The notes under the pieces: generated by a model
Told to the model about the DNA's origin: nothing
What the model saw: only the letters and a program-made list of their open reading frames with translations
The model's database searches: none
Position numbers and translations under genes: made by a program
Part shown: one piece after another, positions 1 to 63,465 of the stretch
How positions within the stretch are numbered: the first letter of the stretch is position 1
Layout: each line of letters starts with the position of its first letter
From: Mercenaria mercenaria
Lineage: Eukaryota
DNA: 64,000 bases
Assembly: GCF_021730395.1 (NCBI RefSeq)
Contig: NC_069364.1
Span: forward strand, 83,403,972-83,467,971
Direction of reading: 5' to 3'

Positions 1-910
1 ATCATCAAGATGAACATTCTGACCAACTTTCATACAGATCCCATGAAAAATATGGCCTCTAGAGAGGTCACAAGGTTTTTTTATTATTTGACCTACTGAC
101 CTTCTTTTTGATCGCAGTTGACCCAGTTTCGAACTTGACCTAGATATCATCAAGATGAACATTCTGACCAACTTTCATACAGATCCCATGAAAAATATGG
201 CCTCTAGAGAGGTCACAATGTTTTTTTATTATTTGACCTACTGACCTAGTTTTTGACGGCACATGACCCAGTTTCGAACTTGACCTAGATATCATCAAGA
301 TGAACATTCTGACCAACTTTCGTGAAGATCCCATGAAAAATATGGCCTCTAGAGAGGTCACAAGGTTTTTTTATTATTTGACCTACTGACCTAGTTTTTG
401 CCCGCAGTTGACCCAGTTTCGAACTTGACCTAGATATCATCAAGATGAACATTCTGACCAACTTTCATACAGATCCCATGAAAAATATGGCCTCTAGAGA
501 GGTCACAAGGTTTTTTTATTATTTGACCTACTGACCTAGTTTTTGATCGCAGTTGACCCAGTTTCGAACTTGACCTAGATATCATCAAGATAAACATTCT
601 GACCAACTTTCATACAGATCCCATGAAAAATATGGCCTCTAGAGAGGTCACAAGGTTTTTTTATTATTTGACCTACTGACCTAGTTTTTGATCGCAGTTG
701 ACCCAGTTTCGAACTTGACCTAGATATCATCAAGATAAACATTCTGACCAACTTTCATAAAGATCCCATGAAAAATGTGACCTCTAGAGTGGTCACAAGC
801 AAAAGTTTACGCACGCACGGACGCACGCACGGACGCACGCACGCACGGACGACGGACGCTGCGTGATCACAAAAGCTCACATTGTCACTTTGTGACATGT
901 GAGCTAAAAA
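1..910 (+). mobile_element. HINE/Helentron-like non-autonomous element, 5'-truncated by the window edge. About 5.5 copies of a 145-bp satellite monomer (1-800), an (ACGCACGG)n microsatellite (806-858), and a 3' terminus AAAGCTCACATTGTCACTTTGTGACATGTGAGCTAAAAA
   Basis: The monomer phase repeats every 145 bp, with ATCATCAAG at 1, 146, 291, 436, 581 and 726. The microsatellite is followed by the conserved hairpin-plus-GAGCTAAAAA terminus, the same terminus seen at 15160, 26283, 29897 and 63465. Confidence 0.6.
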
Positions 911-948
911 GAAGAGAGGCATATTTTTAAGTCAGCAAGACGTAAATA

Positions 949-2756
949 CAAGAGAGCCATGATGGCCCTAGGTCGCTCATCAGAGTAACACACCATATCA
1001 GTGTAAACATATGCAACCTGGTGACCAAGTTTTTGACATCACATGACCCAGTTTCACCTTCATCTGAGTTTCCAAGGAGATAAACATTCTGACCATATGT
1101 TTCATGAAGATTGGAGCAAAAGTGTCGCCTCTATAATGTGTAAAAAAGATTTTTCTTTGATTTGTCTAGTTACCTAGTTTTTAACCCAACTGTACCCAAA
1201 TTTAAACTCGTTCGAAATTTCATGGAGACAAATATTCTAACAAATTGTCATTAAGATTAGACCAAAAATGTGGCCAGAGTGTAAATAAGCATTTTTTTAT
1301 TTGAATAAGTGTACTAGTTTTTGACCCAGATAAAAACATGTCCATGATTTCATGAAAACAAATATTCTGAAAAGTTTCATGAAGACTGGAGCAAAAAAGT
1401 GGCATCTAGAATGTAAAACAAGCTTTTCCTTGGATTTTACAAAGTGACCTACTGTTTTTGACTCTACCTGACCCAAATTCAATATCATACAAGACTTTAT
1501 GATATAAAACATTCTGACCAAGTTTTATGAAGATTGAATCAAAAATGTGTAAACAAGCTTTATCTTTGATATGACCTGGTGACATAGTTTTTGATCTCAT
1601 GGATTCAGATAAAAAGTCATTCGTGATTTCATGGAGACAAAGATACTGACCAAGTTTCATGCACATCAGATGAAAAATGCATCCCCTATTGCATACATAA
1701 AGTTTTTCTTTGATTTGATCGGGTGAAATAGTTTTTTGAACCAAGATGACACATATTCGAACTTTACCTAGATTAAATCAGGACAAGCATTCTGACCAAT
1801 TCTCATGAGTTTCAAACTAAAAATAATTGGCCACTAACCTAAGAGTGTTAACAAGATTTTCCTTTGATCTAGCTTAGTGATTTTAATAGATCTTCAAGAT
1901 AAATATTCTGATCAAGTTTCATGAAGATAGGGATTACAAATGTGGCCTCTAGAGTGTTATTAAGCTTTCCTTTTAATTTGGCCATGTGACCTAGTTTCTG
2001 AACTCACACGACCCAAATTCAACTTTTACCTAGAAGTCATCAGACAAACATTCTGGCCAATTCTAATGAGTTTCAAACTTAGAATGTTGTCTCTAGAGTG
2101 TTAACAGGATTTTCATTTGATATGGCCTAGTGACCTAGTTTTTGATCCCACATGACCCAGATTTGAACCTGACCTAGAGATCATCAAGATAAACATTCTG
2201 ATCAAGTTTCATGAAGATAGAGTAATAAATGTAGCCTCTAGAGTGTTAACAAACTTTTTTTCTACAATTTGACCATGTAACCCAAGTTTTGGACCCCACA
2301 CAACCCAGATTCGAACTTGACCTAGAGATCATCAAGATAAAGATTCTGAGCAATTATCATCAGTTTCAAACTTAAAATGTGGTCTCTAGAGTGTTTACAA
2401 TATTTTCCTCTAGACTGGCCTAGTGACCTAGTTTTTGACCGCACATGATCAAGATTTTAACTTGGCCTAGAGGTCATCAAGATCATCAAGATAAACATTC
2501 TGATCAAGTTTCATGAAGATAGGATCATAAATGTGGCCTTTAGAGTGTTAACAAGATTTTCAAATGATGGTATACTGACCTAGTTTTTTATCTTACATGA
2601 CCCAGTTTTGAACTTGACCTAGAGATTAACAAGACAAACATTCTAACTAAGTTTCATAAAGATTGGGTTAACAAGGCAAATGTTGATGAACGCGGGACGA
2701 CAATGACTCGTCACAATAGCTCACCTTGAGCTCTTCATGCTCTGGTGAACTAAAAA
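949..2756 (+). mobile_element. HINE-like element with diverged 130-170-bp monomers. 5' terminus CAAGAGAGCCATGATGGCCCTAGGTCGCTCA, 3' terminus ...TCACAATAGCTCACCTTGAGC...GGTGAACTAAAAA
   Basis: The 5' CAAGAG plus GGCCATGATGGCC palindrome motif is at 949. Degenerate copies of the TGACC..AGTTTTTGA..CATTCTGACCAA..TTCATGAAGAT monomer follow. A terminal ..CTCACC..GTGAACTAAAAA lies at 2700-2756. Confidence 0.5.
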
Positions 2757-3139
2757 CCCAATAAAATATCAGCCATGAATTAGCTTCTTAACACATAATA
2801 AATGTAAGAGCTGTGAATTAAATCAGTAAATACTAAATATCATTTTACCTCACTGTATTGTTGTGTGCCCTTTAAGGCATTATTTTATCATGGGAGATAC
2901 CTACACAGAACTACTAGCTGGATAGCTTCCTCAAAAAGAGGACTGTAGACCTAAGTGAGGTTTTAAAACAAACTCCAACACAGTGTTACTTCCCCTTATC
3001 GGTACAGTAGACACTGCTACCATGTATAAATTGGGCTGAATTTCAGCCGAGTTACATTTTTCATTATTTTAATTTTGTTGTACTAAGATTTTATCTCATT
3101 AGTTAAATATTATATGTTTTGTTAGTAAAACGAGCAAAA

Positions 3140-3900
3140 CAAGAGCTGTCTCCATAGGATGACACATGCCCCCGATGGCACTTTGAATGAATAGTTATGG
3201 CCGATGTTAGAGTTTAGGACCTTTGACCTACGGAGCTGGGTCTTGCGCGCGACACGTCGACTTACTGTGTCACACATTCATGCATAGTTATTTTAAAATC
3301 CATGCATGAATGACAAAGATATGGACTGGACATGCCCATCAATGCACTATCATGAAAAATGACCTTTAACGTCTAAGTGTGACCTTGACCTTTGAGCTAC
3401 GGACCTGGGTCTTGCGTGTGACACGTCGTCTTACTGTGGTACACATTCATGCCAAGTTATTTGAAAATCCATCCATCGATGACAAAGATATGGACCGGAC
3501 ACGCCCATCAATGCACTATCCTTTAACGTCTAAGTGTGACCTTGACCTTTGAGCTACGGACCTGGGTCTTGCGCATGACACGTCGTCTTACTGTGGTACA
3601 CATTCATGCCAAGTAATTTGAAAATCCATCCATCGATGACAAAGATATGGGCCGGACACACCCATCAATGCACTATCCTTTAACGTCTAAGTGTGACCTT
3701 GACCTTTGAGCTATGGACCTGGGTCTTGCGCGCGACACATCGTCTTACTGTGGTACACATTCATGCCAAGTTATTTGAAAATCCATCCATTGATGACAAA
3801 GATATGGACCGGACACGAAAATTGCGCACAGACCGACAGACGGACAGACAGACGGTTCAAAAACTATATGCCTCCCTTCGGGGGCATAAAAAACTAAAAA
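3140..3900 (+). mobile_element. Hairpin-terminated tandem-repeat element of a second terminal type. 5' CAAGAGCTGTCTCC.., four copies of a roughly 155-bp monomer (3218-3830), a (CAGACGGA)n microsatellite, and a terminal hairpin ATGCCTCCCTTCGGGGGCAT (3868-3887)
   Basis: Monomers starting GACCTTTGAGCTACGGACCTGGGTCTTGCG recur at about 155-bp spacing. The microsatellite is at 3826-3858 and is followed by a perfect 8-bp-stem hairpin. Confidence 0.5.
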
Positions 3901-5249: not shown

Positions 5250-6275
5250 CTTGTCACAGAACTAAGCTAAATGTCAAAGCAGAACTTGCTTGACCTTTGA
5301 CCTTAAAACCAATAGGGGTCATCTGCTGCTCATAATCAACATCCCTATGTAGTTACATGATCCTGGACCCAAGCATTCTAAAGTAAATGTCCTGAAATGG
5401 TTTAAATGTTCCGGTCACTCTAACCTTTGACCTTTTGAACTCAAAATCAATAGGGGTCATCTGCTGATCATGACCAACCTCCCTATTAAGTTTCAAGATT
5501 CTATGCCCAAGAATTCTGAAGTTATTGTCTGAAAACTGTTAACTCTTCCAGGTCACTGTGACCTTGACCTGTGACATACTGGCCTCAAAATCAAAATGGG
5601 TCATCTGCTGGCCATGACCAACGTTCAAATTAATATGTATGATCCTAGGCAAAAGCACTCTCAGGTTATCATCTGGATACCATTTAAATGTTTCGGATTA
5701 TTGTGACCCTGAACAATGACCTACTGACCTCAAAGTCAAAACTGACCTGTATTTCATTTTGTAACACCTGTGTACCAAAACCTATGATCCTAGGCCCAAG
5801 CACTCTCAAGTTATCATCCAGAAACCGTTCAATTGTTCTGAGTCATTGTGATCTTGACCTTTGATCTTACTAGCCTTTTAAGTCAAACTTGACCTGTTTT
5901 TCATGATGTTACACCTGTGTACCAAAATTTATAATCCTAGGCAAAAGCATTCTCAAGTCATCATCCGGAAACCAGGGTCATTGTGACCTACTGACCTGAA
6001 AGATGAACCTGACCTGTAATTGACCAAAATGTATGATCCTAGGTCAAAGCATTCTCAAGTTATCATCAGGAAACTGTTTAACTGTTCATGGTCACTGTGA
6101 CCTTGACCTTTGACCTAGTGATATCAAAGTCAAATTTGGTCTGTATTTTCTGAATATACACCTGTGTACCAAAAACTATTTAAATCTGTCAAGCTTTTCA
6201 TGAGTTATTGCCCGGAAACCATGAAAAACCAACTGAATGACAGACAGACAGACCAACCAACCGACCAACAAGCTC
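5250..6275 (+). repeat. Tandem array of about six 145-165-bp monomers (GACCTTGACCTTTGACC...CAATAGGGGTCATCTGCTG...), ending in a (CAGA)n(CCAA)n microsatellite at 6236-6275. It lies inside the predicted intron of the minus-strand proline-rich gene.
   Basis: CAATAGGGGTCAT and GTGACCTTGACCTTTGA blocks repeat directly. The same monomer family occurs at 12100-12480 and 39110-40690. Confidence 0.6.
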
Positions 6276-10510: not shown

Positions 10511-11455
10511 CAAGAGGGCCAAGATGGCCCTAGGTTGCTCACCTGAGAAACACAGTGTAAACATGTTTGACCTAGTGATTTCATGGAAATATATATTCTG
10601 ACCAATTTTCTTTAAGATTGGACTAAAATTGTGGTCTCCTAAGTGTAAACAAGTATTTTCTTCAATTTGACCTAGTGATCTAGTTTTAAAGCCAAGATGA
10701 CCTACATTCGAATTTGACCTAGATTTGATCAAGGCAATCATTCTGACTTAATTTCATCAACCTCAATTGAAAAATACAGTCTCTATCGCATACAAAACGT
10801 TTTTCTTTGATTTGTCCTAGTGGCCTAGTTTTTAAACCCAGATGATCCATATTCAAATCTGACCTTAATTTCATCAAAGCTATCATTCTGGCCAAATTTC
10901 ATAAAGATTAATTGAAAAATACAGTCTCTTTTGCATACACAAGGTTTTACTTTGATTTGACCTCTGACCTAGTTTTTGACCACAGATAACCCATTTTCGA
11001 ACTTGGCCTAGATTTCATCAAGTTAATTATTCTGACCAAAATTCATTATGATCAATTGAAAAATACAGCCTCTATCGCATACACAAAGTTTTTCTTTGAT
11101 TTGACCTTGTGGCCTAGTTTTTGACCCAAGATGACCCATTTTCATATTCGGCCTAGATTTCATCAAGGTAATCATTATGACAAAATTTCATGAAGATCAG
11201 TTGAAAAATACAGCCTCTTTCGCATACACAAGGTTTTTCTTTGATTGGACCTAGTGGCCTAGTTTTTGACCCCAGATGACCCATTTTTCAAACCTGGCCT
11301 AGATTTCATCAAGATAATCATTCTGACCAAATTTCCTGAGGATCAGTTGAAAAATACAGCCTCTATCGCATACACAAGCTACATGTTGACAGACAGACAG
11401 ACAGACGACAGACGCTGGACATTGAGCGATAACAAAACCTCAACTGAGCAAAAAG
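10511..11455 (+). mobile_element. HINE-like element. 5' CAAGAGGGCCAAGATGGCCCTAGGTTGCTCACCTGAG, about six copies of a roughly 150-bp monomer, a (GACA)n microsatellite (11388-11420), and a 3' terminus ..CTCAACTGAGCAAAAAG
   Basis: A direct read shows the 5' motif, the tandem monomers (..CATTCTGACCAAA.TTCAT.A.GATCA.TTGAAAAATACAGCCTCTATCGCATACACAAGG..), the microsatellite and the terminus. A second 5' motif (CAAGATCTGTCACAGGAGACAG) lies upstream at 10372. Confidence 0.55.
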
Positions 11456-12099: not shown

Positions 12100-12480
12100 A
12101 CTGTGCACAAAAGTGCTATTGTTCTTGGTCAAGTTCACCTTGACCTTTGACCTACTGACCTCAAGATCAATAGGGGTAATCTGGTTATGAAAAACCTCTC
12201 TATTAAGTTTTGTGATCCTAGACCCAAGCATTCTCAAGTTATCGTCCAGGCACATTTTAGCTGTTCCAGTCACTGTGACCTTGACGTTTGACCTACTGAC
12301 CTCAAAATCAATAGGGGTCATATGCTTGTCATGATCAACTTCCCTATTAAGTTTTATGATCCTAGGCCCAAATGTTCTTGAGTTATCATCCAGAAACTGT
12401 TTAACTGTTCTATATCACTGTGACCTTGACCTTTGACTTCTGATCTCAAAATCAATAGGGGTCATCTAATAGTAAAATTA
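12100..12480 (+). repeat. About 2.5 copies of the 145-bp CAATAGGGGTCAT/GTGACCTTGACCTTTGACC satellite family
   Basis: Same monomer as the arrays at 5250-6275 and 39110-40690. Confidence 0.5.
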
Positions 12481-13557: not shown

Positions 13558-14022
13558 AACAAGAGAGCCAAGATAGCCCATGGGCGCTCACTTGAGTAAC
13601 ATACAATAACAGTGTAAACATGTCTAATCTAGTGAGACAAATTGAGACAAACATTCTAACCAATTTTCATTAAGACTGGACCAAAAACGTGGCCTCTTGA
13701 GTGTAAACAAGCATTTTCTTTGATTTAACCTAGTAACCTAGTTTTTGATCTCAAGTGACCCAGATTCGAAACTCCAAGACTTCATGATAACAAATATTCT
13801 GACCAAGTTTTATAAATATATAGAATCAAACATGTGGCCCCATAGGTAGACCTGAACTTTTATCTCGATGATATCTAGGTCAAGTTCAAAACTGGGTCAC
13901 ATGAGCTCAAAAACTAGGTCACTGTAAATAATAGAAAAAATGACCTCATACTCAGTTCAAAACTGGGTCATGTGGGGACAGGTGAGCGATTCAGGACCAT
14001 GATGGTCCTCTTGTTTAAAGAA
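13558..14022. mobile_element. Two HINE 5' termini placed head-to-head. One is in plus orientation at 13558-13850 (CAAGAGAGCCAAGATAGCCCATGGGCGCTCACTTGAG..). The other is inverted at 13850-14022 (reverse complement of ACAAGAGGACCATCATGGTCCTGAATCGCTCACCTGTCCCCACATGACCCAGTTTTGAACTGAGTATGAGG..).
   Basis: The inverted copy matches the 5' region of the element at 61567 when reverse-complemented. Confidence 0.45.
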
Positions 14023-14329
14023 TCCACAAGTGTTCATTAATACCCTCCAAGGTGTCCGTTACTACCCGACCTGTTCACTAACTGCCTCCAATATCATGAC
14101 CAGTCTTACATATTATCTAACATATTGAAAATTGTTGTGTTTTTGGCATTGCTTTCCACTAAATACTGAAGGCCAGGTGTATAATCATTTATAACAGAGT
14201 TCAATTTCATTGAGAAGAAAACACAGCTTCACTGCACCAGAATAGCCTTATTTAAGTGTCCATTAATACCTGACCCAGCTACCCCTTTTCTTCTGTATTA
14301 TGAAGTTGACTGAAAACTACCTACCTACT

Positions 14330-15160
14330 TTACGGACGGATGCACACACACACCGATAGACGGACGCCATGCGCACATGACCCACTTTCGAACTTGACCT
14401 AGATATCATCAAGGTAAACATTCTGACCAATTTTCATGAAGATCCATTGAAAAATATGGCCTCTAGAGAGGTCACAAGGTTTTTTTATTTTTAGACCTAA
14501 TGACCTAGTTTTTGACCGCATGTGACCCACTTTCGAACCTGACCTATATATCATCAAGGTGAACATTCAGACCAACTTTCATGAAGGTCCGTTGAAAAAT
14601 ATGGCCTCTAGGAGGTCACAAGGTTTTTCTATTTTTAGACCTACTGACCTAGTTTTTGACTGCACGTGACCCAGTTTCCAACTTGACCTAGATATCATCA
14701 AGGTAAACATTCTGACCAATTTTCATGAAGATTCATTGAAAAATATGGCCTCTAGGGAGGTCACAAGGATTTTCTATTTTTAAACCTACTGGCCTAGTTT
14801 TGGACTGCACGTGACCCAGTTTCAAACTTGACCTAGATATCATCAAGTTGAACATTCTGACCAATTTTCATGAAGATCCATTGAAAAATATGGCCTCTAG
14901 GGAGGTCACAAGGTTTTTCTATTTTTAGACCTACTGACCTAGTTTTGGATCGTACGTGACCCAGTTTCGAATTTGACCTAGATATCATCAAAATGAACAT
15001 TCTGACCAATTTTCATAAAGATCCCATGAAAAATGTGACCTCTAGAGTGGTCACAAGCAAAAGTTTACGGACGGACGGATGGACGCACGGACAGACGGAC
15101 GACGGACGCCACGCGATCACAAAAGCTCACCTTGTCACAAAGTGACTGGTGAGCTAAAAA
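14330..15160 (+). mobile_element. 3' portion of a HINE. About five copies of a 145-bp monomer (14390-15060), an (ACGGACGG)n microsatellite (15063-15110), and the terminus GCGATCACAAAAGCTCACCTTGTCACAAAGTGACTGGTGAGCTAAAAA
   Basis: Monomer, microsatellite and terminus follow the same plan as the element at 1-910. Confidence 0.6.
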
Positions 15161-16795: not shown

Positions 16796-17078
16796 TAAAG
16801 CAATGAGCAGTTTTAAACTAAAAATACTTCTGAGTTTTAAGTGAATACTTCTGAGTGAATTTCCACAGCCTTGCCTTGCAGAACATAACAAGAGCTGTCA
16901 CAGGAGACAGTGTGCTCGACTATTTTGATACTGGACAGTGAAACTTGGCACATCTGAGGAAACTGAAGTTGTCACTGGAGTGTTTAATGGTGGATGAAGA
17001 TATTGTACAACAGCTTGAGTCTATGTCAAAATATTAAGTAATGAGGGAGGTAAAGATTAAGTGTATCAAAACAAGAGG

Positions 17079-45340: not shown

Positions 45341-45486
45341 CTCCCCTCAGTCTTAACACAAGATGCAACATTGACTCATGCTGGATGTTATAGTCCTGCA
45401 GTGATCTACCATCTTCTAACTGCTTTCCAGCAAATATCAATCTCTGTTGATCTGGTGGTATTCCTTCTTTGTCTTGAATCAGTGCC
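45341..45486 (-). CDS. Coding exon encoding the C-terminal two-thirds of a ubiquitin-like domain, [49 protein letters not shown]. It ends in phase 1 after RLRGG.
   Basis: Acceptor CATTTTGCAG| and donor GGGGAG|GTATGG. It is about 90% identical to the invariant ubiquitin segment [48 protein letters not shown], with 4 substitutions, so it is a ubiquitin-like domain rather than canonical ubiquitin. It overlaps the listed ORF 45315-45551. Confidence 0.6.
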
Positions 45487-46510: not shown

Positions 46511-46619
46511 CTAAATAGTAAATTAATTTAAAAAACATTAAACACTGCTTTTAATAACAAGAGATCACAGAGTGATCTTGGCGCCCACCAATGTGCCATT
46601 TTTGAGTGTTCCAAATTTC

Positions 46620-48405: not shown

Positions 48406-48418
48406 CAATGTGTGTGTC

Positions 48419-48680
48419 CAAATAAGATAAATTATTTTCAATTAAAAATAATTTGATTTATTTATTCAAGAAATACTTGTTATGCTCGTTGCCATGGTCA
48501 CACGGTTATCTCTCGGTCTTTTCTTATAACTGGTTCCCGTCTTTCTGACTAATACGAATTACACATAATTACTGGGCCGAGAACAATCTTAATAACGGCT
48601 TATAAAAGCAAAAAACACGTGCAGCCTTTCTCACTTACGTCGTAGTCTACCTGTAAAGAACATCGAACTTACAACTTTTC
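48419..48680 (+). repeat. Ngaro-like element terminal repeat A1 (A2 copy at 54104-54365)
   Basis: 262-bp direct repeat, 259 of 262 identical. Confidence 0.8.
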
Positions 48681-48729
48681 TTCTGCTACGTATATATATA
48701 TATATACTAGTAAATCTACTCGGATTCTA

Positions 48730-49890
48730 ATGCCGCGTGGGCGTGTTAGACAGCGAGGCGGCAGGGCTAGGGCAGGAAGGCCAGCCAGGGCAAACAGAAA
48801 TGCCGACGGCCAGCAGAATGAAGCAGGCGGCCAGCAGAATGAGGCAGAACGAGGCAATAACCATCCAAACACCCGCGGGCAGAAACGAAGAGCCGATGAC
48901 CTTGAGCACGCTGAAAGGACACCGGCACGTGGTCTGGCAGAGCCATCAGATATAGATGACGGAGGCAATATACTGTTACAGGAAAATGCCGGTGGGTCTA
49001 ATTTTATTGATTTTGAACAGGTTTTTCGTAGTTCAGGTCTTATGTCTTGTAACGGTAATGAGACTAGTTCAAGGTCAAATAGTACTTCTAATATAGGATT
49101 TGACAATGGACACGACAAAAATGTACCTCTGCCACCCCGTCAGATCAATGAAACGTGTCAGAATGCCTCCTTTAATCATAACTTTCCATCCGTTCGTTTA
49201 TCAAATGATGATTTGACTGCACATGTACCATCATCGTTAAAACAACAAATCTGTCGTGGAGAATACGTTAATCTGGCCTTACTCTTAAAAGGGGCTATCG
49301 AACTGTCTGAATTTTGTAAGGGTAGTGTTTTCAAACTCTCGGCGGATGGCCACATTGAGTCATCTCATAAAGAGTGCAAAGATAAAATTACATCTAGAGA
49401 AAAATGGACCAATGCATTTATAATTTATGCTTCCATTTACCTTCCGACACATAGTGATAAAGTTCACGAGTTACTTCACTATATGTTTAACATATGGGAC
49501 TGTGCAATGCGCCAAGGGGGCAACGGGTGGAGAATTTATGATGAACAATTTCCCCTTTGCCAGGCTATATGTCCGTCCCCATGGTCACAAACAAATAACG
49601 AACTTTGGTGGCGATGTATACAGGTCAAAGATAATCAGTCTGCAAATCAGTCAGTTATAAATCCTCTCAGGTACACGTGCCATGATTTTAACAGAGGTAG
49701 TTGTTTCTGGTCAAACTGTAAATATCCTCATATATGCGCAAAATGTTTTGCACCACATCCTGAGGTCACCTGTTCCCAGTCCGGTTCTTCAGGTCAAGGT
49801 CAAATGACAAGCCCTCAGTTTAATTTTCGTGGCAGGGGCTTTCGCCGACCGTTCAGAGGACCTAAACGAGGTCAACCAAGAAAACAGTAA
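48730..49890 (+). CDS. ORF1, a putative Gag-like protein of 386 aa with a basic N-terminus and a Cys/His cluster (CHDFNRGSCFWSNCKYPHICAKCFAPH)
   Basis: It is the first ORF of the element and overlaps ORF2 in a different frame, as is typical of DIRS-order elements. It was not recognised by specific motif beyond the zinc-knuckle-like Cys/His spacing. Confidence 0.5.
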   Translation: MPRGRVRQRGGRARAGRPARANRNADGQQNEAGGQQNEAERGNNHPNTRGQKRRADDLEHAERTPARGLAEPSDIDDGGNILLQENAGGSNFIDFEQVFRSSGLMSCNGNETSSRSNSTSNIGFDNGHDKNVPLPPRQINETCQNASFNHNFPSVRLSNDDLTAHVPSSLKQQICRGEYVNLALLLKGAIELSEFCKGSVFKLSADGHIESSHKECKDKITSREKWTNAFIIYASIYLPTHSDKVHELLHYMFNIWDCAMRQGGNGWRIYDEQFPLCQAICPSPWSQTNNELWWRCIQVKDNQSANQSVINPLRYTCHDFNRGSCFWSNCKYPHICAKCFAPHPEVTCSQSGSSGQGQMTSPQFNFRGRGFRRPFRGPKRGQPRKQ

Positions 49891-51586
49891 AACTGTAAGC
49901 TTTAACTCAACAAACAGCCCATCAGTTCAACAGCTCACCAATTTTGATATTTCTAATTTGGCAAAATCACCAGTAAAAGTGGAAGCCTTGAAACAATATG
50001 CACTCTTGTACGAAACCAGTGAATCTAAGTTTTTACTAGACGGTTTTACGAAAGGATTTTCCATTCAGTACACAGGTCCTCGCTTACCACGAGATTCAAA
50101 TAATTTGCGTTCTGTTACACTCAGTCCGGAAATAATAAAATCTCAAATTAATAAAGAGTTAGAAGCAGGAAGAATAGCTGGTCCATTTGTTCATCGCCCA
50201 TTTCCTAATTTAATAGTTTCACCGATAGGCTTAGTTCCTAAAAAAACACCGGGAGAATTCCGAATGATTCATCATTTGTCACATCCCCCTGGCGGTTCAA
50301 TTAATGACTTTATTGACCCAGATTTATGCTCTGTCCAATACACTAGCTTCGACAAGGCAGTTAAGTTAGTTCAAGATCTAGGACGAAATTGTAAACTTTT
50401 CAAGTCGGACATTAAAAGTGCATATCGTTTAATACCGATTCACCCCGATGATTTTGAATTACTGGGATTTTGCTATGATGGTCATTTTTATTTTGACAAA
50501 GCGCTCCCGTTTGGGGTATCAATAAGCTGCATAACTTTTGAAAGGTTTGCTAGGTTTCTTGAATTTTGTGTTAAATTAAAACTACAGTCAGATAGCTTGA
50601 TACACTATTTAGATGACTTTCTAGGGGGAGACAAATCTGTTGAATCATGTACTCGTGCTTTAGAAATTTTTAAAAGTACAATGTCTGAACTTGGTGTGCC
50701 TTTAGCGCTCGACAAAACTGAAGGCCCTACAGAGGTTTTGATCTTTTTAGGCCTAGAACTAGATTCAAACCATATGACGGTAAAAATTCCTATAGCAAAA
50801 ATGCAGGAGGTTATACAAAAAATCGAAGAAATTCTTTCACGAAATAAAACAACATTAAAGAAAATGCAGTCTCTCATTGGGTCATTAAACTTTTGTTGCA
50901 GAGCCATAGTAGTGGGTAGGCCTTTTATACGCCGACTAATAAACTCAGTTTGTGGTCTCACGAAGCCTTTTCATCGCATTCGAATTAAAAAAGAGATACG
51001 GCTTGATTTGGCAATGTGGTTAGTTTTTCTAAAAAAATTTAACGGTATCTCTGTTTTTCATGACCGTTATTGGATCACGAACACCGATACAGAGTTATAC
51101 ACTGATAGTGCGGGTGGCAAGGGATTAGGCTTTGGTATATACTTCAAAGGCCATTGGTGTTCGGCGAAGTGGCCGGACACGTGGCACACGTGCGGCATCA
51201 CGTCAGATATAACAGTACTGGAATTGTTCCCGATTTTGGTAGCTATATTCATTTGGGGAAAGGATCTGATGAATAAAAAAATAAGATTTAACAGCGATAA
51301 TATGGCTGTGGTTCACATTCTTAACAAATTATCCTCTAAATCAGAACGAGTTATGTGCATTGTCAGGATATTAACGTTGAGATGTTTTAACTTGAATATT
51401 TTAATCAAAGCCTCTCATGTCCCGGGTTGTAGCAATGAAATCTGCAACGCTTTATCTCGCTTTCAGTTGAACAAGTTCAGAGAATTAGCTCCAGACGCAG
51501 ACGTCAGCCCCCATTCAATACCAACTTTTCTATGGGACATCTTCGATCTAGAGCTAGACAACTGCTTCTGTCAGGGATTTCAATGA
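49829..51586 (+). CDS. ORF2, reverse transcriptase plus RNase H, 585 aa
   Basis: RT motifs IVSPIGLVPKK, FRMIHHLSHP, FKSDIKSAYRLIPIHPDDFELLGF, ALPFG and HYLDDFLGG are present. The RNase H region has YTDSAGGKGLGFG..ELFPILVA..NSDNMAVVHIL..ASHVPGCSNEICNALSR. Confidence 0.85.
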   Translation: MAGAFADRSEDLNEVNQENSKTVSFNSTNSPSVQQLTNFDISNLAKSPVKVEALKQYALLYETSESKFLLDGFTKGFSIQYTGPRLPRDSNNLRSVTLSPEIIKSQINKELEAGRIAGPFVHRPFPNLIVSPIGLVPKKTPGEFRMIHHLSHPPGGSINDFIDPDLCSVQYTSFDKAVKLVQDLGRNCKLFKSDIKSAYRLIPIHPDDFELLGFCYDGHFYFDKALPFGVSISCITFERFARFLEFCVKLKLQSDSLIHYLDDFLGGDKSVESCTRALEIFKSTMSELGVPLALDKTEGPTEVLIFLGLELDSNHMTVKIPIAKMQEVIQKIEEILSRNKTTLKKMQSLIGSLNFCCRAIVVGRPFIRRLINSVCGLTKPFHRIRIKKEIRLDLAMWLVFLKKFNGISVFHDRYWITNTDTELYTDSAGGKGLGFGIYFKGHWCSAKWPDTWHTCGITSDITVLELFPILVAIFIWGKDLMNKKIRFNSDNMAVVHILNKLSSKSERVMCIVRILTLRCFNLNILIKASHVPGCSNEICNALSRFQLNKFRELAPDADVSPHSIPTFLWDIFDLELDNCFCQGFQ

Positions 51587-52423
51587 ATTCAAGGCTAACA
51601 TATAATACTGCCTTTCGGGCATTTGAAAATTTTAGGCGGTTATACAATCTTTCAGACAGTTGGCCTATACCAGAACAACAAATCACTTTATTTATGGCTT
51701 ATTGTTTCGAAAAAGGGTTGTCACCCAAGACAATCACGAGGTATATAGCTGGGCTAAATTATTTTCACAAACTTTCTGGATATTATGATATAACCCAGGT
51801 TTTCATTGTTAATAAATTACTAGAGGGTTGCCATAGGAACCGTATCACACATGATAACAGAGCCCCACTAACTCTGCCTATTTTGACATCTATTTGCAGA
51901 GTTCTAAGAGAAATATGCTTCAATGCGTATGAAACAAAACTGTTTACTTCGCTCTTTACTTTAGCATACTTTGGATTGTTCAGGGTTAGCGAATTAGTTG
52001 TCTCCTTTAGGGGACAATTTGATGGGCCCATTAAACGATCAGATTTGTTCGTGATTGATAACCAATATCTTACAATTCAACTTCGGCATAGTAAAACAAA
52101 CCAAAGGGGAAAACCGACTAAAACTACCCAGAGAATCTGGGCCTGTCTGTGCAGTGCAAGCATTAACAGATTTCTTGGCCGTAAGACCAAAAAATGAAGG
52201 AATATTATTTTGTCATCAAGAAGGCACCCCAGTTACCAGAACTCAATTTTCAGCCATTCTGTATAAATGTCTGAGTAAAAATCAAATTACTGGTACATTT
52301 AAATCGCATAGCTTTAGAATTGGTCGGGCTACAGACCTGGCAACTAGGGGTTATTCAGCGAGTGTAATTATGAAACTTGGTAGATGGAAATCTAATTGCT
52401 ATAAAGTATACATCCGAACGTAA
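51532..52423 (+). CDS. ORF3, tyrosine recombinase, split over two frames (51532-52197 and 52055-52423) by an apparent one-nucleotide frameshift near 52105-52120
   Basis: YR hallmarks are LFTLAYFGLFRVSELV, IQLRHSKTNQRG, then after the frame change ..SGPVCAVQALTDFL..HSFRIGRATDLA..GRWKSNCYKVYIR, which gives the R..H..R..Y catalytic signature. The join falls in the GGGGAAAACC run. Confidence 0.75.
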
Positions 52424-52584
52424 TTCTACAGTAAAGAGATGTTTTCCCACTCTTAACTGTATCAGCGGACAACATTTTTTAAAAGTGCATTGAAGTCAGT
52501 TCTTCCTGGTAGTTATTCCGTTTAAAGCGAATTTTCCACATTTAAGGTATTCTTGTCAATTCCATCTAATAACTATTTGTAGAT

Positions 52585-53139
52585 GTGTGGGTCCTGGGAG
52601 ATTCAATACCGTTCTGGGCTGGTAAACGAGCAGCAGACACCGGTAAACCCAACCTTTCGTTACCCGATATAACTATAGCTTGGTGGGGAATAAGCGGACT
52701 TCGATGGACATCATTTCGCCATTCAGTACAGACTCAAGTATTACTGTCATCGCCACCAAGGGCTATCATCTTACATTTAGGTGGTAACGATTTGACAAGT
52801 TTATCTTCTATCGAGCTAAGGGAGTTAATAGAGACAGAAGTGAAATATCTACGCGATGCCTTCCCCGAGACAATTATCATTTGGGTAGATATTTTACCAA
52901 GGAGGGTCTGGAGGGGGGCCTGTAATCTCAAAGCTATTGACGTCAAACGCAAACGAATAAATAGATCGGGCCGGATTATTACAAGTCGGTCTGGCAGGAG
53001 TGATATAGTGAGCCCAGATATTGATACGGCTACTAATTTTTTCAGATCTGACGGGGTCCATTTAAATGAGGTGGGGTTGGAGTTTTATCTGTACTATTTG
53101 AAATCTGCCATAATAAAAAATCTCTGTGCGTCTCAATAA
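52585..53139 (+). CDS. ORF4, an SGNH/GDSL-family hydrolase-like protein of 184 aa
   Basis: Block I VLGDSI (GDS), block III LHLGGNDL (GGND) and block V DGVHLN (DxxH) occur in the correct order and spacing. Its position after the YR ORF matches the hydrolase-like ORF reported in some Ngaro elements. Confidence 0.65.
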   Translation: MWVLGDSIPFWAGKRAADTGKPNLSLPDITIAWWGISGLRWTSFRHSVQTQVLLSSPPRAIILHLGGNDLTSLSSIELRELIETEVKYLRDAFPETIIIWVDILPRRVWRGACNLKAIDVKRKRINRSGRIITSRSGRSDIVSPDIDTATNFFRSDGVHLNEVGLEFYLYYLKSAIIKNLCASQ

Positions 53140-53171
53140 TAATTTTGGGGGATAAATTGAAATTTATTGTG

Positions 53172-54110
53172 GCGGTAAAATTTTTATTGGCCGGAAGGTG
53201 ACCAGGCGTTGCAGTTTCTATGAAGTAAATTTAACAAGTTATTGTTATTTACAATTTCCAATTTCGCTTACTTCGGAATATGGGCGTGACTTCTCTCCTC
53301 GATGGCATTCTATTTTGCGTTCAAGAGGAGACATAGCCGTCCGTATTCGGATTTTTCTATCTTATTTCGCAGGTCACTACTTTATGTAAGCTGTTATTGT
53401 TACTCTGAGTCACCAGGTTATTTCAATGGTTGTCAACTGGACTGTTGCTTCTGGTTACTTGTTTACTTATTGTTGTCGACCCGAATGTTGCTTCGGGTCA
53501 CTAAGTAGTGGTAAACTCGAATGTTGCTTCGGGTTTGTTTGTAGTCTGTCGTTGACCTGAATGTTGCTTCGGGTCACTAGGTCTGGCCCATGTAGTTTTG
53601 GTAAGGCCTAGTCGACGTGTTTGCTGCCAGTAACGCATTACAGGTTCTACCGGCATACCTCGTATCGAGCTGGTAGTGTGATTATGGGTCCTTTGCTTTC
53701 AAGGTTGGTACCGATTCACGGTACGGTCAACTTGGAAGCTGGGGTCTATGACTGCACGATCAGTGGGACTCCTTTGGTAATGCGACACGTAGCAATTGAT
53801 GCCATTAGTAATATTTTCAAAGGTGACTCGGCGACCGGGATCCTTTTGGCAATTTCACTTGTAATGTTTGGCACGCTTGCAGGTCCCTTCCGGTCGATGA
53901 GCTAGCTACCAAATTTGAGCAGCCGACACAACCAAACTTATTAATTTGAAATGATATGAATATACATGTAATTCGTAAGCAATATTTCAAGGTTTTATTA
54001 TCACGTACCTATATCTATTTGAATATATTGTCGGTACAGATTGGTGACATGTTTAATAAATTTAGAGAAGGCTGTATGTATTGTTTTTTATTTCGAGTAA
54101 TATCAAATAA
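53172..54110 (+). repeat. Ngaro-like element repeat B1 (B2 copy at 55000-55935). It contains three tandem GAATGTTGCTTCGGGT hairpin-forming motifs (53470-53585).
   Basis: Roughly 939-bp direct repeat, about 99% identical. It is noncoding, and the ORFs listed inside it are repeat artefacts. Confidence 0.8.
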
Positions 54111-56264
54111 GATAAATTATTTTCAATTAAAAATAATTTGATTTATTTATTCAAGAAATACTTGTTATGCTCGTTGCCATGGTCACACGGTTATCTTTCG
54201 GTCTTTTCTTATAACTGGTTCCCGTCTTTCTGACTGATACGAATTACACATAATTACTGGGCCAAGAACAATCTTAATAACGGCTTATAAAAGCAAAAAA
54301 CACGTGCAGCCTTTCTCACTTACGTCGTAGTCTACCTGTAAAGAACATCGAACTTACAACTTTTCCCCGCCCGCCTCAGCCCGCAAAAGCTACCATATTT
54401 TTGATTAATAAGATTGTTTCACCTATACTATACCATGTGATAACTATTTTTGGTCAGGAATTGCTGTTGGTTGTATATATTTTCAGGATACCATATTTCA
54501 AATTTCTGTTGTATCAATGTTGAATTCTGACGGTGTCACCAACTCATGTACCCAGAGCCATAAGACGAATGCAATTCAGATGTGAAAACAGTATATTGTT
54601 ATGAAGACTGTGATTTTATCAAATAAACGGTTACAGGCGCCTTAGCGGTACATGGAATTAATGCTGATGTGAACAGTCATTTGTAATATACTTATTTAGT
54701 GTGAACACTGATTCATTGGAAGTGATTTGTCAGTTAATGATCATAGTGCTCGGGTATTTGTTTGTTCTTATTACACATTTTATGTGCATTTATATCGTGT
54801 GACATTTTGTGCTAGCTTAATGGGACAATTATTTGACATTACATGTATACTAAGCAGCATAATTCTGGACATTTAGTGTATTTACTTCATGAAGACGTAA
54901 TTCTATGCCTAAATAATATAAATGTATGTATATAAAGAGTCGGACAGTCTATCTTAAGGTTTCATTCATATATGTCGCTCTATTTATATGTTGTATATTG
55001 CGGTAAAATTTTTATTGGCCGGAAGGTGACCAGGCGTTGCAGTTTCTATGAAGTAAATTTAACAAGTTATTGTTATTTACAATTTCAAATTTCGCTTACT
55101 TCGGAATATGGGCGTGACTTCTCTCCTCGATGGCATTCTATTTTGCGTTCAAGAGGAGACATAGCCGTCCGTATTCGGATTTTTCTATCTTATTTCGCAG
55201 GTCACTACTTTATGTAAGCTGTTATTGTTACTCTGAGTCACCAGGTTATTTCAATGGTTGTCAACTGGACTGTTGCTTCCGGTTACTTGTTTACTTATTG
55301 TTGTCGACCCGAATGTTGCTTCGGGTCACTAAGTAGTGGTAAACTCGAATGTTGCTTCGGGTTTGTTTGTAGTCTGTCGTTGACCTGAATGTTGCTTCGG
55401 GTCACTAGGTCTGGCCCATGTAGTTTTGGTAAGGCCTAGTCGACGTGTTTGCTGCCAGTAACGCATTACAGGTTCTACCGGCATACCTCGTATCGAGCTG
55501 GTAGTGTGATTATGGGTCCTTTGCTTTCAAGGTTGGTACCGATTCGCGGTACGGTCAACTTGGAAGCTGGGGTCTATGATTGCACGATCAGTGGGACTCC
55601 TTTGGTAATGCGACACGTAGCAATTGATGCCATTAGTAATATTTTCAAAGGTGACTCGGCGACCGGGATCCTTTTGGCAATTTCACTTGTAATGTTTGGC
55701 ACGCTTGGTCCCTTCCGGTCGATGAGCTAGCTACCAAATTTGAGCGGCCGACACAACCAAACTTATTAATTTGAAATGATATGAATATACATGTAATTCG
55801 TAAGCAATATTTCAAGGTTTTATTATCACGTACCTATATCTATTTGAATATATTGTCGGTACAGATTGGTGACATGTTTAATAAATTTAGAGAAGGCTGT
55901 ATGTATTGTTTTTTATTTCGAGTAATATCAAATAATGCTTCATTTACACAGAAAGATATCTAGCCATATCACAAAGGTATTTCTGTTTTTTGCTCTTGCA
56001 GCCCCTAAAAGGTGCTTAAGTGTCCCAAATTTGAATAAATTTGAGAGAGGACCTTACAATGATGCTACAGACAAAATTTGACGAAGATCCATCAAGCGGT
56101 TCATGAGAAGAAGTGGTTTAAAGGTTTTTTCTAATTTTAGCCCTAGCGGCACCTTAAAGGGGCCAAGTGCCCTCATTTAAACAATTTTTGGGAAAGCATC
56201 TTACAAAATTATTCTACAGACAAAGTTTCATGAAGATCCATTAAGCGGTTCATGGCCAGACAAA

Positions 56265-57115
56265 ACAAGAGCACTGCCTTGCGGGTGCTGACGCTCATCT
56301 GATTTTTTTTGTATAATAGAAATATTGTCCTACCTATGATTTTCTAAGTCTAAAAAGGGCCATCATTCTTGCAAAAAGCTGGATAGAGTTATGTTTCTTG
56401 ATGTACAGCATTCGCTTATGATGATGAAAAACTGTTGCAAGTTTTAAAGCAATAGCTTTGATGGTTTATGAGAAAAGCTGACTTAAACATAATACTCAAC
56501 CAAGAAAACTGATTTTCTAAGTCCAAAAGGGGTAATAACTAAAAGCAGGACGGAGTTATGTTTCTTGATGTACAGGGTCAGCTTATGATGGTAAACAAGT
56601 GTTGCAAGTTTCAAAGCAATAGCTTTGATAGTTTATGAGATAAAGTTGACCTAAACATAAAACTTAACCAAGAAATCTGATATTTTCTAAGTCCAAAAGG
56701 GGCCATAAATCTTGCAAAAAGCAGGATGGAGTTATGTTTCTTGATGTACAGGGTCAGCTTATGATGGTGAACAAGTGTTGCAAGTTTTAAAGCAATAGCT
56801 TTGATAGTTTAGGAGAAAAGCTGACCTAAATATAAAACTTAACCAAGAAAACTGATTTTCTAAGTCCAAAAGGGGAAATAATTCTTGCAAAAAGCAGGAT
56901 GGAGTTATGTTTCTTGATGTACAGGGTCTGCTTATGATGATGAACAAATGTTGCAAGTTTCAAAGCAATAACTTTGATAGTTTTGGAGAAAAGCTGACCT
57001 AAACATAAAACTTAACCAGGCAACGCCGACGCCGACACAGACGCCGACGCCGATCAAGTGATGACAATAACTCATCATTTTTTTTCAAAAAATCAGATGA
57101 GCTAAAAATGACCTA
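56265..57115 (+). mobile_element. Complete small HINE. 5' CAAGAGCACTGCCTTGCGGGTGCTGACGCTCATCTGA, about five copies of a 145-bp monomer (..AAAAGCTGAC.TAAACATAAAACTTAACCAAGAAA.CTGATTTTCTAAGTCCAAAAGGGG..AATAA.T...GCA..A.GGA.GGAGTTATGTTTCTTGATGTACAGGGTC.GCTTATGATGGT.AACAA.TGTTGCAAGTTT.AAAGCAATAGCTTTGATAGTTT..GAGA), a (GCCGAC)n microsatellite (57030-57060), and the terminus ..AATCAGATGAGCTAAAAA
   Basis: The 5' and 3' termini carry the complementary 11-mers GCTCATCTGAT and ATCAGATGAGC, a subterminal inverted repeat that parallels GCTCACCTG and CAGGTGAGC in the main family. Confidence 0.55.
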
Positions 57116-61300: not shown

Positions 61301-61368
61301 CGGTCAGCAGAGAGAACTCCATCCTCCCAGTCACTGATTATTGCTCTTGCTGTTAAACGATGAAGAAT
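61288..61368 (-). CDS. Candidate coding exon of 81 nt encoding ILHRLTARAIISDWEDGVLSADRTDHE
   Basis: Acceptor CTCACTTTCCAG| and a strong donor CATGAG|GTAAGTG. Phase 0 to phase 0. Confidence 0.4.
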
Positions 61369-61566
61369 CTGGAAAGTGAGAAAAAAAAACGTGATGTTGC
61401 CCAATACATATAAATTTTTTATATAATCCAAGAGCACAGACTTTTCATTTACTTATCCAGACCCAAAAGGTTTGAGGACAGTCTCGGAGATAAAAAAGGT
61501 ATGCTTAATTTAACAAGAAATGTTTTGTAGCTATGTCATAAATTCAAAGCTGCAAGATTTTTTAAA

Positions 61567-63465
61567 CAAGAGGACCATGATGGTCCTGAATCGCTCACCT
61601 GTCCCCACATGACCCAGTTTTGAACTGAGTACGACGTTGTTTTTTTCTATTATTTGACATAGTGACCTAGTATTTGAGCTCATGTGACCCAGTTTTGAAC
61701 TTGACCTAGATACCGAGATAAAAATTCTGACCAAGTTTCATGAAGATCCATTGAAAAATATGGCCTCTAGAGAGGTCACAAGGTTTTTCTATTATCTGAC
61801 CTAATGACCTAGTTTTTGACTGCACGTGACCCACTTTCGAACTGGACCTAGATACCATCAAGGTGAACATTCTCACCAATTTTCATGAAGATCTCATGAA
61901 AAGTACGGCCTCTAGAGAGGTCACAAGGTTTTTCTATTTTTAGACCTAATGACCTAGTTTTTGACCACACGTCATCCACTTTCGAACCTGACCAAGATAT
62001 CATCAAGGTGAACATTCTGACTAATTTTCATGAAGATCCATTGAAAAATAAGGCCTCTAGAGAGGTCACAAGGTTTTTCTATTTTTAGACCTACTGACCT
62101 AGTTTTTGACCGCATGTGACCCACTTTCAAACCTGACCTAGATATCATCAAAGTGAACATTCAGACCAACTTTCATGAAGATCCATTGAAAAATATGGCC
62201 TCTAGAGAGGTTACAAGGTTTTTCTATTTTTAGACCTAATGACCTAATTTTGGACCGCACGTGACCCAGTTTCAATCTTGGCCTAGATATCATCAAGGTG
62301 AACATTCTGACTAATTTTCATGAAGATCCATTGAAAAATATGGCCTCTAGAGAGGTCACAAAGTTTTTCTACCTTTAGACCTACTGACCTAGTTTTTGAA
62401 AGCACGTGACCCAGTTTCGAACTTGACCTAGATATCATCAAGATGAACATTCTGACTAATTTTCATGAATATCCATATAAAAATATGGCCTCTAGGGAGG
62501 TCACAAGGTTTTAGTAATTTTAGACCTACTGACCTAGTTTGACTGCACGTGACCCACTTTCGAACATGGCCTAGATATCATCAAGATGAACATTCTGACC
62601 AATTTTCATGAAGATCCATTGAAAAATATGGCCTCTAGGGAGGTCACAAGGTTTTTCTATTTTTAGACCTACTGACCTAGTTTTTGACCGCATGTGATCC
62701 ACTTTCGAACATGGCCTAAATATCATCAAGATGAACATTCTGACTAATTTTCATGAAGATCCATTGAAAAATATGGCCTGTAGGGAGGTCACAAGGTTTT
62801 TCTATTTTTAGACCTAATGACCTAGTTTTGGACCGCACGTGACCCAGTTTCGAACTTGACCTAGATATCATCAAGATGAACATTCTGACCAATTTTCATG
62901 AAGATTCATTGAAAAATATGGCCTCTAGAGAGGTCACAAGGTTTTTCTATTTTTAGACCTACTGACCTAATTTTGGAAAGCACGTGACCCAGTTTCGAAC
63001 TTGACCTAGATATCATCAAGATAAACGTTCAGACCAACTTTCATACAGATCCCATGAAAAATATGGCCTCTAGAGAGGTCACAAGGTTTTTCTTTTATTT
63101 GACCTACTGACCTAGTTTTTAGTGGCACGTGACCTAGTTTCGAACTTGACCTAGATATCATCAAGACGAACATTCTGACTAACTTTCATGAAGATCCACT
63201 GAAAAATATGGCCTCTAGAGAGGTCACAAGGTTTTTCTATTTTTAGACCTACTGACCTACTTTTTGACCGCAGTTGACCCAGTTTCGAACTTGACCTAGA
63301 TATCATCAAGATGAACATTCTGACCAACTTTCATAAAGATCCCATGAAAAATGTGACCTCTTGAGTGGTCACAAGCAAAAGTTTACGCACGGACGGACGG
63401 ACGGACGACGGACGCTGCGCGATCACAAAAGCTCACACTGTCACATTGTGACATGTGAGCCAAAA
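61567..63465 (+). mobile_element. Complete HINE of about 1.9 kb. 5' ACAAGAGGACCATGATGGTCCTGAATCGCTCACCTGTCCCCACATGACCC, about eleven copies of a 145-bp monomer, an (ACGGACGG)n microsatellite (63385-63415), and the terminus GCGATCACAAAAGCTCACACTGTCACATTGTGACATGTGAGCCAAAAAG
   Basis: Both termini are present. The monomers are the same family as at 1-800, 14390-15060 and 23280-26180. The terminus is nearly identical to 860-910. Confidence 0.7.

Follow-up and report, generated by a model that had tools for sequence, protein, structure and literature searches.

A dense one-way nest of satellite-carrying Helentron partners on a Mercenaria mercenaria chromosome

The stretch of DNA analyzed here, referred to as the window, comprises 64,000 nucleotides of Mercenaria mercenaria contig NC_069364.1 (positions 83,403,972 to 83,467,971). 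It is AT-rich eukaryotic DNA (GC content of ~37%) in which ~20 units of satellite-carrying HINEs, the non-autonomous partners of Helentrons, point in one direction, with a single short fragment reversed. HINEs occupy at least 39% of the window and a DIRS/PAT-like retroelement a further 12% (Table 1). Run on the whole window, Tandem Repeats Finder returned ~25 separate arrays with periods of 98 to 173 bp, and scans for rRNA, tRNA, and Rfam families gave no match. A first-pass annotation had described at least 15 co-oriented, satellite-bearing, non-autonomous elements of Helitron/Helentron type at this locus.

Read from left to right on the plus strand, an element opens with CAAGAG, followed by a short palindrome (GGCCATGATGGCC and variants) and GCTCACC; next comes the array, and beyond it lie an (ACGG/ACGC/ACAG)n microsatellite, a hairpin of the form AGCTCACC-loop-GGTGAGCT, and an A-run. 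By the Helentron convention, the T-run, subterminal inverted repeat (subTIR), inverted repeat (IR), and microsatellite mark the 5' end, and the second subTIR and palindrome mark the 3' end (PMC7492417, PMC4067079). What the first-pass annotation called the 3' end is therefore the canonical Helentron 5' end, and the elements lie canonically on the minus strand; its 5' and 3' labels are inverted relative to this convention and agree with older drawings of the pearl and DTC84 elements. Its assignment to a non-autonomous Helentron type was correct, as the HINE architecture makes clear. The left subTIR, GCTCACCT(G), has its reverse complement, (C)AGGTGAGC, on the right, in keeping with the ~11 to 13 nt typical of HINEs, and minor terminal families carry matching variants (CTGTCTCC with GGAGACAT, and GCCCACC with GGTGGGC). 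An IR complementary to the 5' subTIR forms a hairpin with it, at the 1- to 22-nt distance characteristic of HINEs. Folded as single-stranded DNA, this hairpin has a predicted energy of -8.6 to -12.2 kcal/mol in the main family (z of -3.5 to -6.7), and the hairpins of other terminal families reach z values of -2.5 to -5.1. The microsatellite, (GTCC)n on the canonical strand, immediately precedes 13 ends and is of the GTCY type found in HINEs. At the canonical 3' end, the palindrome expected of HINEs (GGCCATGATGGCC or GGACCATGATGGTCC) lies between the subTIR and CTCTTG and is conserved in 9 copies; its predicted 7-bp stem is weak by energy alone (z of -1.2 to -2.4). The canonical strand has one to six T residues after CTCTTG and T5 ahead of AGCTCACC. 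No target duplication is visible at eight reconstructed sites, whose exact boundaries are provisional.

Every element contains an array of 98- to 173-bp repeats whose orientation is fixed relative to the flanks. The window elements match HINEs in every structural feature tested. Their arrays range from 2 to 20 monomers, satellite family and terminal variant change from element to element, and at least six to eight terminal-sequence variants occur in the window. Open reading frame (ORF) and profile scans found no Rep/helicase ORF in the 64 kb.

Strand-blind scans agree on the orientation of these elements as read on the plus strand. The motif GGTGAGCTAAAAA, with up to two mismatches allowed, has 13 matches, all on the plus strand, compared with 2.5 expected by chance. 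Profile hidden Markov models (HMMs) of both end types, trained on plus-strand copies and searched on both strands, returned 13 significant right ends, all plus, and 9 significant left ends on the plus strand, with 1 on the minus strand at 14013-13977 that is part of the reversed fragment. Because these profiles had been trained on plus-strand copies, we added scans that do not depend on the family. Clusters of the ACGG-type microsatellite number 13 on the plus strand and 0 on the minus strand. A scan for GC-rich hairpins followed by an A-run recovered the known ends and added ends of other families at 3893, 18426, 40756, and 41290, all plus; its six minus-strand hits are all AT-rich hairpins lacking the microsatellite. 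The resulting tally is 17 ends with microsatellite, hairpin, and A-run and 11 to 13 ends with CAAGAG and palindrome, all plus, in ~20 element units, and the combined annotation places 18 units on the plus strand and 1 on the minus strand. Self-BLAST gave 593 plus/plus high-scoring segment pairs versus 36 plus/minus pairs, nearly all of the latter stemming from 13852-14024, and every satellite family matches on the plus strand only. The one-way orientation therefore involves more elements than first claimed, and the sole reversed piece, originally given as 170 bp at 13850-14022, is refined to 173 bp at 13852-14024. A separate 285-bp repeat is exempt from the one-way rule: its copies at 8010-8294 and 26514-26798 are 94.8% identical, lie in opposite orientations, and contain a conserved ORF fragment (…VGLRI.GSRV.SSGGAYVLRD…). 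This repeat represents another transposon family.

The probability of such agreement depends on what is counted as a trial, with estimates of ~2^-16 for 17 of 17 ends, 2^-11 for ~12 separate clusters (12 of 12), and 2^-5 for ~6 independent families. The earlier figure of 2^-14 was right in placing the co-orientation beyond chance but assumed independent elements; because co-orientation in a second species (described below) is specific to the terminal family, fewer trials can effectively be counted as independent. A mere run of luck could be argued from the choice of the window for its unusual look and from the agreement among families, which amounts to only ~2^-5 once co-orientation within families is granted. 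Given the counts of ends and clusters and the same tendency in independent contigs of another species, we regard a chance run as hardly credible.

Table 1. Features of the window, with the strand of HINEs given as their canonical direction
Feature	Position	Strand	Description
HINE 1	1..910	-	145-bp array x5.5 (1-799); (ACGC/ACGG)n 809-859; canonical 5' end (subTIR/IR hairpin + T-run) 874-910; canonical 3' end beyond window start
End stub GAAGAGAGGCAT	911..922	-	10/12 identical to CAAGAGAGCCAT end motif; joined directly to HINE 1
HINE 2, complete	949..2756	-	CAAGAG + palindrome + GCTCA at 949; diverged 145-bp array 1888-2663; hairpin end 2699-2756
HINE 3, other terminal family	3140..3893	-	CAAGAG-CTGTCTCC end; 157-bp array 3218-3817; (ACAG/ACGG)n 3836-3855; hairpin ATGCCTCCC-TTC-GGGGGCAT + A6, ending 3893
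Degenerate HINE	5289..6275	-	138- and 147-bp arrays 5289-5974; (ACAG)n 6240-6251; eroded AAGCTCAC end
HINE 5	10511..11443	-	CAAGAG + palindrome at 10511; 145-bp array 10649-11378; microsatellite 11389-11408; truncated hairpin end
Array-only remnant, GACCTTGACC satellite family	12137..12465	-	co-oriented with relatives at 3218, 5289, and 39240
HINE 7, complete	13560..15160	-	145-bp array 14372-15057; hosts reversed fragment
Reversed fragment	13852..14024	+	canonical 3' end + ~one monomer; 91% identical to 61556-61727
HINE 8	16098..16783	-	145-bp array; hairpin end 16722-16783; without CAAGAG end
HINE 9, host element	16889..20574	-	CAAGAG-CTGTC..GACAG at 16889; 165-bp array 19720-20462; AGCTCTCC-type hairpin end 20528-20574
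HINE 10, nested in HINE 9, co-oriented	17072..19715	-	172-bp and 161-bp arrays
HINE 11, complete	23222..26282	-	20 x 145-bp array
HINE 12, complete	27717..29897	-	160-bp and 165-bp arrays
HINE 13	30211..31354	-	truncated subTIR end 30211-30230; 166-bp array 30767-31125; hairpin end 31295-31354
HINE 14	39240..40756	-	10 x 145-bp GACCTTGACC-family array; (ACGG)n 40702-40717; hairpin ATGTCTCC-TGGA-GGAGACAT + AATAAAA
Probable further HINE end	40780..41290	-	(ACAG)n 41231-41246; weak GCCCCAT..ATGGGC hairpin; A-run ending 41290
HINE 16	42554..43316	-	degenerate CAAAAG + GCTCACC end; 147-bp array 42617-43229; hairpin end 43260-43316
HINE 17, complete	46558..48408	-	98-bp and 166-bp arrays; AGCCCACC-type hairpin end
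Two-monomer HINE array remnant, co-oriented	55973..56254	-	immediately before HINE 19
HINE 19, complete	56266..57108	-	173-bp array; AACTCATC-type hairpin end
HINE 20, complete	61567..63466	-	12 x 145-bp array
DIRS/PAT-like tyrosine-recombinase retroelement	48419..55935	+	between HINE 17 and remnant; outside HINE family; ORFs: gag-like 48730-49890, reverse transcriptase 49829-51586, SAM-like/Tyr recombinase 51532-52423, extra GDSL/SGNH hydrolase 52585-53139
Two proline-rich ORFs, 284 and 185 aa	6349..7795	-	FGAP..SLMF..GAPPPPPPP units; overlap 30-bp and 78-bp tandem repeats
Orphan ORF, 322 aa, acidic (…SESEESEEEMGFSLFEYD…)	21143..22111	-	between HINE clusters
SNARE-like ORF	44787..44978	-	GTATGA donor; ~400 bp downstream of ubiquitin-like exon
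Ubiquitin-like exon	45318..45575	-	profile residues 27-72, Pfam E 1e-18; TTTTGCAG acceptor, GTATGG donor

At short range, head-to-tail and nested polar insertion is seen directly in the window. The junction between the terminus at 910 and the next left end at 949, with its 38-bp gap, is as first described, and the two elements that meet there, HINE 1 and HINE 2, are ~74% identical. The stub within this gap matches an end motif at 10 of 12 nucleotides and seems to be what is left of a direct head-to-tail (circle-junction-like) joint. HINE 8 and HINE 9 are separated by 105 bp (16783 to 16889), and HINE 19 starts 11 bp after the older two-monomer remnant. A terminus thought to run into the next array at 19722 does adjoin that array but ends at 19715; the nesting of HINE 10 within HINE 9, in the same polarity, explains the arrangement. 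HINE 10 is itself composite, as it has an extra internal end (GTACCCCCC hairpin, 18388-18426). The terminus said to abut the retrotransposon at 48405 likewise adjoins it but lies at 48408, 10 bp ahead of the DIRS/PAT-like element. When this element is removed in silico, the end at 48408 lies ~47 bp from the remnant at 55973, and the retroelement appears to have pushed apart two HINE units that were once that close. Neighboring and nested elements carry different satellites and are separated by gaps of 38 to 384 bp, with only the 12-nt stub at 911-922 hinting at a former direct joint. Several simple causes can be set aside. A tandem array of the Helitron type, made by termination bypass, would consist of near-identical copies end to end, and the abutting neighbors here differ. 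Target availability is ruled out as the cause of orientation, as A5 and T5 runs number 130 and 125, respectively, in the 31.6 kb of spacer DNA analyzed for runs and skew; inside HINEs, T-runs are commoner than A-runs on the plus strand. A selective effect of polyadenylation signals is also ruled out, with AATAAA occurring 16 times on the plus strand and 15 times on the minus strand inside HINEs.

The insertions are independent of one another. Alignments between copies, which are ~87% identical, end no more than 10 bp from the termini, and a sensitive comparison of 300-bp flanks found in common only trivial overlaps or the arrays of neighboring HINEs. Because the alignments stop at the termini and the flanks are unrelated, we reject segmental growth of a composite locus, which the first-pass annotation had offered as an alternative and for which no non-HINE similarity in the 300-bp flanks could be found. 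Duplication of an element-bearing block does occur elsewhere, as a tandem unit in a related species (contig L102, below) and as two 99.7%-identical copies 4.5 kb apart in the bindin gene of Crassostrea gigas (PMC7492417). In the window, the copies also vary in how long their arrays are, which terminal variant they carry, and which satellite family they contain, and we give segmental or tandem duplication almost no credence.

We also assessed neighbor orientation in a second bivalve. The end motif retrieved at least ~100 host-derived metagenome contigs, mostly from JGI samples Ga0224510 and Ga0224511 (L003 to L122), which, among the matches listed, contain much HINE-rich bivalve host DNA and can serve for sequence comparison; the satellites on these contigs are 71 to 79% identical to those of the window and come from another bivalve species. 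The same motif found only chance prokaryotic or viral matches in genome and viral contig collections, and Ruditapes loci and a bivalve assembly in ENA have few ends of the window type. Among the listed contigs, 19 have at least two elements with profile-HMM ends, and their adjacent pairs are oriented the same way in 24 cases and oppositely in 3 (P = 5e-5). A family-agnostic annotation, which added oppositely oriented neighbors of other families, revises this ratio to 22:7 (P = 0.008), and microsatellite/hairpin ends alone give 11:7. The distinction follows the terminal family: pairs in which both ends match the window-type profile are 21 same to 3 opposite, while pairs that include a microsatellite-only end are 1 same to 4 opposite (one-sided Fisher P of ~0.007, calculated by hand). 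Two contigs contain head-to-tail joints of the form GAGCTAAAAA/CAAGAG, an exact GGTGAGCTAAAAA/CAAGAG joint in L040 (283/284) and a similar one in L112 (4019/4024). The kilobase-long spacers between co-oriented neighbors are mostly unique within the contig set. In contig L071 (1-190), a duplicated 5' end with microsatellite was also observed, its two identical ends lying 117 bp apart.

The interpretation that we favor, as possible rather than established, is that this nest of ~20 independently inserted HINEs was built by polar insertion: rolling-circle copies would have settled close to relatives already in place and adopted their strand polarity. In such a process, the Helentron Rep/helicase would cut and join one specific DNA strand, and new copies would integrate with the same polarity, preferentially in the vicinity of the donor or at or near the termini, T-runs, or hairpins that resident relatives provide. 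Over repeated rounds, co-oriented clusters would build up, to be spread and eroded afterwards by small deletions and by new arrivals such as the DIRS-like element. Polar insertion fits the reports of adjacent and tandem Helitrons in bat, silkworm, maize, rice, and Drosophila and the prediction of the same for Helentrons (PMC4067079, PMC5148889). The narrower idea of the first-pass annotation, insertion at the A-run of a previous element, suits the abutting and nested units but not the spacing of the rest.

Several observations weigh against polar insertion near relatives. The ~12 clusters are set apart by 0.3 to 8 kb of non-HINE DNA, little of it recognizable as transposon, and retention of polarity over kilobases of host DNA is not accounted for by this interpretation; we know of no mechanism that keeps polarity at a range of 0.3 to 8 kb. 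A once-contiguous nest that was later split cannot explain all of the spacing, because the spacers hold a spliceable exon and long ORFs. Terminal families with unrelated satellites agree in orientation in the window (~2^-5), which the family-specific pattern of the second species does not predict; this cross-family agreement may be due partly to chance or to a locus-wide bias. The contigs of the second species are short and not from the species of the window, and contig L102 (1679-3915) has a local 1.77-kb tandem duplication, 94 to 96% identical, that carries HINE ends of both orientations, so that some of its pairs are not independent.

The main alternative is a locus-wide strand bias. If transcription of one or more minus-strand host genes, or the direction of replication forks, imposed a locus-wide strand asymmetry, HINEs of every family would become co-oriented; under transcription, they would integrate into the displaced non-template strand or be selected for orientation in introns. 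Such an asymmetry would account very well for the window, where orientation agrees over ~12 clusters, six to eight terminal families, and 63 kb. The exon-like ORFs (ubiquitin-like, SNARE-like, 322-aa, and proline-rich) are all on the minus strand, which is canonical for the HINEs, although their agreement carries little weight because they may represent only one or two genes. The DIRS/PAT-like element is antisense to them, as is typical of intronic retroelements. Spacer DNA is skewed on the canonical strand, with G exceeding C by 2.9% and T exceeding A by 1.3% (GC skew of -0.029 on the plus strand), and unique flanks in 88 contigs of the second bivalve show a T-over-A excess of 1.4 to 1.7% on the canonical strand (P of ~0.002) that extends over 0.1 to 2 kb, with no GC skew. 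Bacterial single-strand transposons with replication-linked orientation bias would offer a parallel (PMC5371812). Against a family-blind effect, the cross-family pairs of the second species are mostly opposite. The flank skew is small and could reflect either a real strand asymmetry or unmasked debris of co-oriented HINEs, and the polyadenylation-signal counts show no asymmetry. Transitions in the satellites are likewise strand symmetric: among singleton differences from the consensus (13 array sets, with 82 monomers from 8 usable), A>G and T>C number 30 and 32 and C>T and G>A number 40 and 39, a comparison of low power. Transversions in the same sample include 20 A>C versus 6 T>G (P = 0.005, uncorrected for six tests). 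Overall, we consider a locus-wide asymmetry a serious explanation but one that is probably wrong.

Closely spaced inverted repeats are well established to be unstable, and elements might arrive in both orientations and be filtered afterwards, with inverted homologous arrays forming hairpins or stalling forks and being deleted. The family specificity of co-orientation in the second species is in line with such filtering, as is the reduction of the only reversed copy to 173 bp at a distance of 350 bp from a homologous array. This instability, however, falls steeply with spacer length, and same-family copies in the window are 2 to 40 kb apart. Filtering also leaves unexplained the agreement among families with unrelated arrays and the exact head-to-tail joints, and we judge it improbable. 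The repeat-rich, one-way character of the locus, in which HINEs and the DIRS/PAT-like element together take up so much of the sequence and the dominant class points one way, might alternatively suggest a unistrand cluster of PIWI-interacting RNAs, transcribed from one strand, in which one orientation is retained for antisense small RNAs. In this case, all transposon classes should run one way. The DIRS ORFs are on the plus strand and the canonical HINE direction is minus, the 285-bp repeat occurs in both orientations, and exon-like host sequence is interspersed, all of which makes such a cluster very improbable.

To our knowledge, replication-linked orientation bias has not been demonstrated for eukaryotic Helitrons or Helentrons. 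The closest mechanistic analogues are IS200/IS605 (IS608) and Tn7-TnsE, which, through HUH single-strand chemistry or fork targeting, take one orientation per replication domain and, unlike the window HINEs, are bacterial (PMC5371812). By analogy with IS200/IS605, integration of animal Helentrons could be strand polar relative to a moving machine that exposes single strands, whether replication fork or transcription, a suggestion that we consider unlikely as it stands. If true, co-oriented HINE runs would mark ancient domains of fork direction or transcription, and maps of their orientation could serve as a fossil record of these domains in bivalve genomes.

The kind of element found here is already known, and what is new is this example of it, a dense nest with a single orientation. 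Cg_HINE of the Pacific oyster (Vojvoda Zeljko et al. 2020, PMC7492417) has the same T-run, 5' subTIR, IR, GTCC-type microsatellite, array, 3' subTIR, and palindrome. Like the window elements, Cg_HINE has arrays of fixed orientation relative to the flanks and, in some copies, two consecutive arrays; it has T-rich boundaries and no target duplication, as the window elements appear to have. The sequences differ, although motif blocks of the oyster CL1/Cg170 monomers can be seen by eye (not quantified) in the 166-bp monomers of the window. Integration of Cg_HINE was described as "in both orientations" with even dense dispersal, and neither local co-orientation nor nests were described (PMC7492417). 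The DINE-1/HINE elements of Drosophila, mosquito, and mite (Thomas et al. 2014, PMC4067079) share with the window the subTIRs, an IR beside the 5' subTIR, a 3' stem-loop, tandem repeats and a microsatellite (both optional), and apparently the boundary T strings and TT targets; they belong to another phylum and have other sequences, and the window arrays are long, reaching 20 monomers. The authors of that study suggested that rolling-circle transposition may cause clustering of related insertions and did not report neighbor orientation statistics. The pearl, DTC84, and MgE repeat-bearing elements of bivalves resemble the window elements in their core repeats, ACGG-type microsatellite, and flanking modules; they were drawn in the orientation used by the first-pass annotation, before the Helentron link, and read as miniature inverted-repeat transposable elements with an AA target duplication (PMC3879986). 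The tandem Helitrons of bat, silkworm, maize, and rice are adjacent and run in the same direction, and their composite elements with multiple 5' ends recall L071 and 17072-19715 (PMC4067079, PMC5148889). Those arrays consist of copies of one element and are explained by bypass of the termination signal, whereas the window neighbors differ in family, array, and age and are mostly spaced by unrelated DNA.

In the literature searched, we found no orientation statistics for neighboring HINEs, DINE-1, or Helitrons and no report that any of the three favors one orientation within introns or clusters; a literature search with sequence strings likewise gave no match. Our data suggest that a known element class inserts, or survives, with an undocumented strand polarity, a modest and testable novelty. 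Satellite-like arrays are spread through bivalve genomes mainly by HINEs, as they are in Drosophila by DINE-1, and HINE insertion has so far been characterized only as TT, T-rich, and in both orientations. A reproducible shared polarity would constrain how eukaryotic HUH (Rep/helicase) proteins integrate, both as to the strand cut and as to the use of resident ends versus exposed single strands. It would also explain the origin of co-oriented arrays, which are able to merge into longer satellites or to give rise to deletions. Simple annotation of any chromosome-level bivalve assembly is enough to test for the effect.

The spacers hold the host-like sequences listed in Table 1. The SNARE-like ORF has a weak match to V-SNARE_C (E of 0.06) and no database homologue. 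The 322-aa ORF, for which two large protein searches returned no homologue, is probably a lineage-specific exon or gene, as it is unusually long for DNA of 35% GC. No Pfam match was found for the proline-rich ORFs. A scan of the spacers for the inverted repeats of transposon ends found a single convincing pair and gave no sign of later insertion for most spacers. This pair, at 33410-33450 and 35812-35852 in the largest spacer, consists of 41-nt inverted repeats that are 98% complementary and 2.36 kb apart; they may be the termini of a DNA transposon, and the adjacent region at 36 to 38 kb has a GC content of 27%.

The DIRS/PAT-like element has two split direct repeats, one at 48419-48680 and 54104-54365 (98.9% identical) and one at 53172-54110 and 55000-55935 (99.1% identical), an identity that points to a young insertion. 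The best matches to its reverse transcriptase, at 70 to 73% identity, are in bivalves and bivalve-contaminated assemblies, and its gag-like ORF has no database record. Two further repeats lie outside the elements described above. A 237-bp near-perfect palindrome at 15507-15743, 85.8% self-complementary and foldback-like, is located between two HINEs, and a 57/28-bp tandem repeat (GGTACCTGGTTCGTATATGGTACATGGAA…) at 9582-9878, which is not HINE-like, is open in several frames on both strands.

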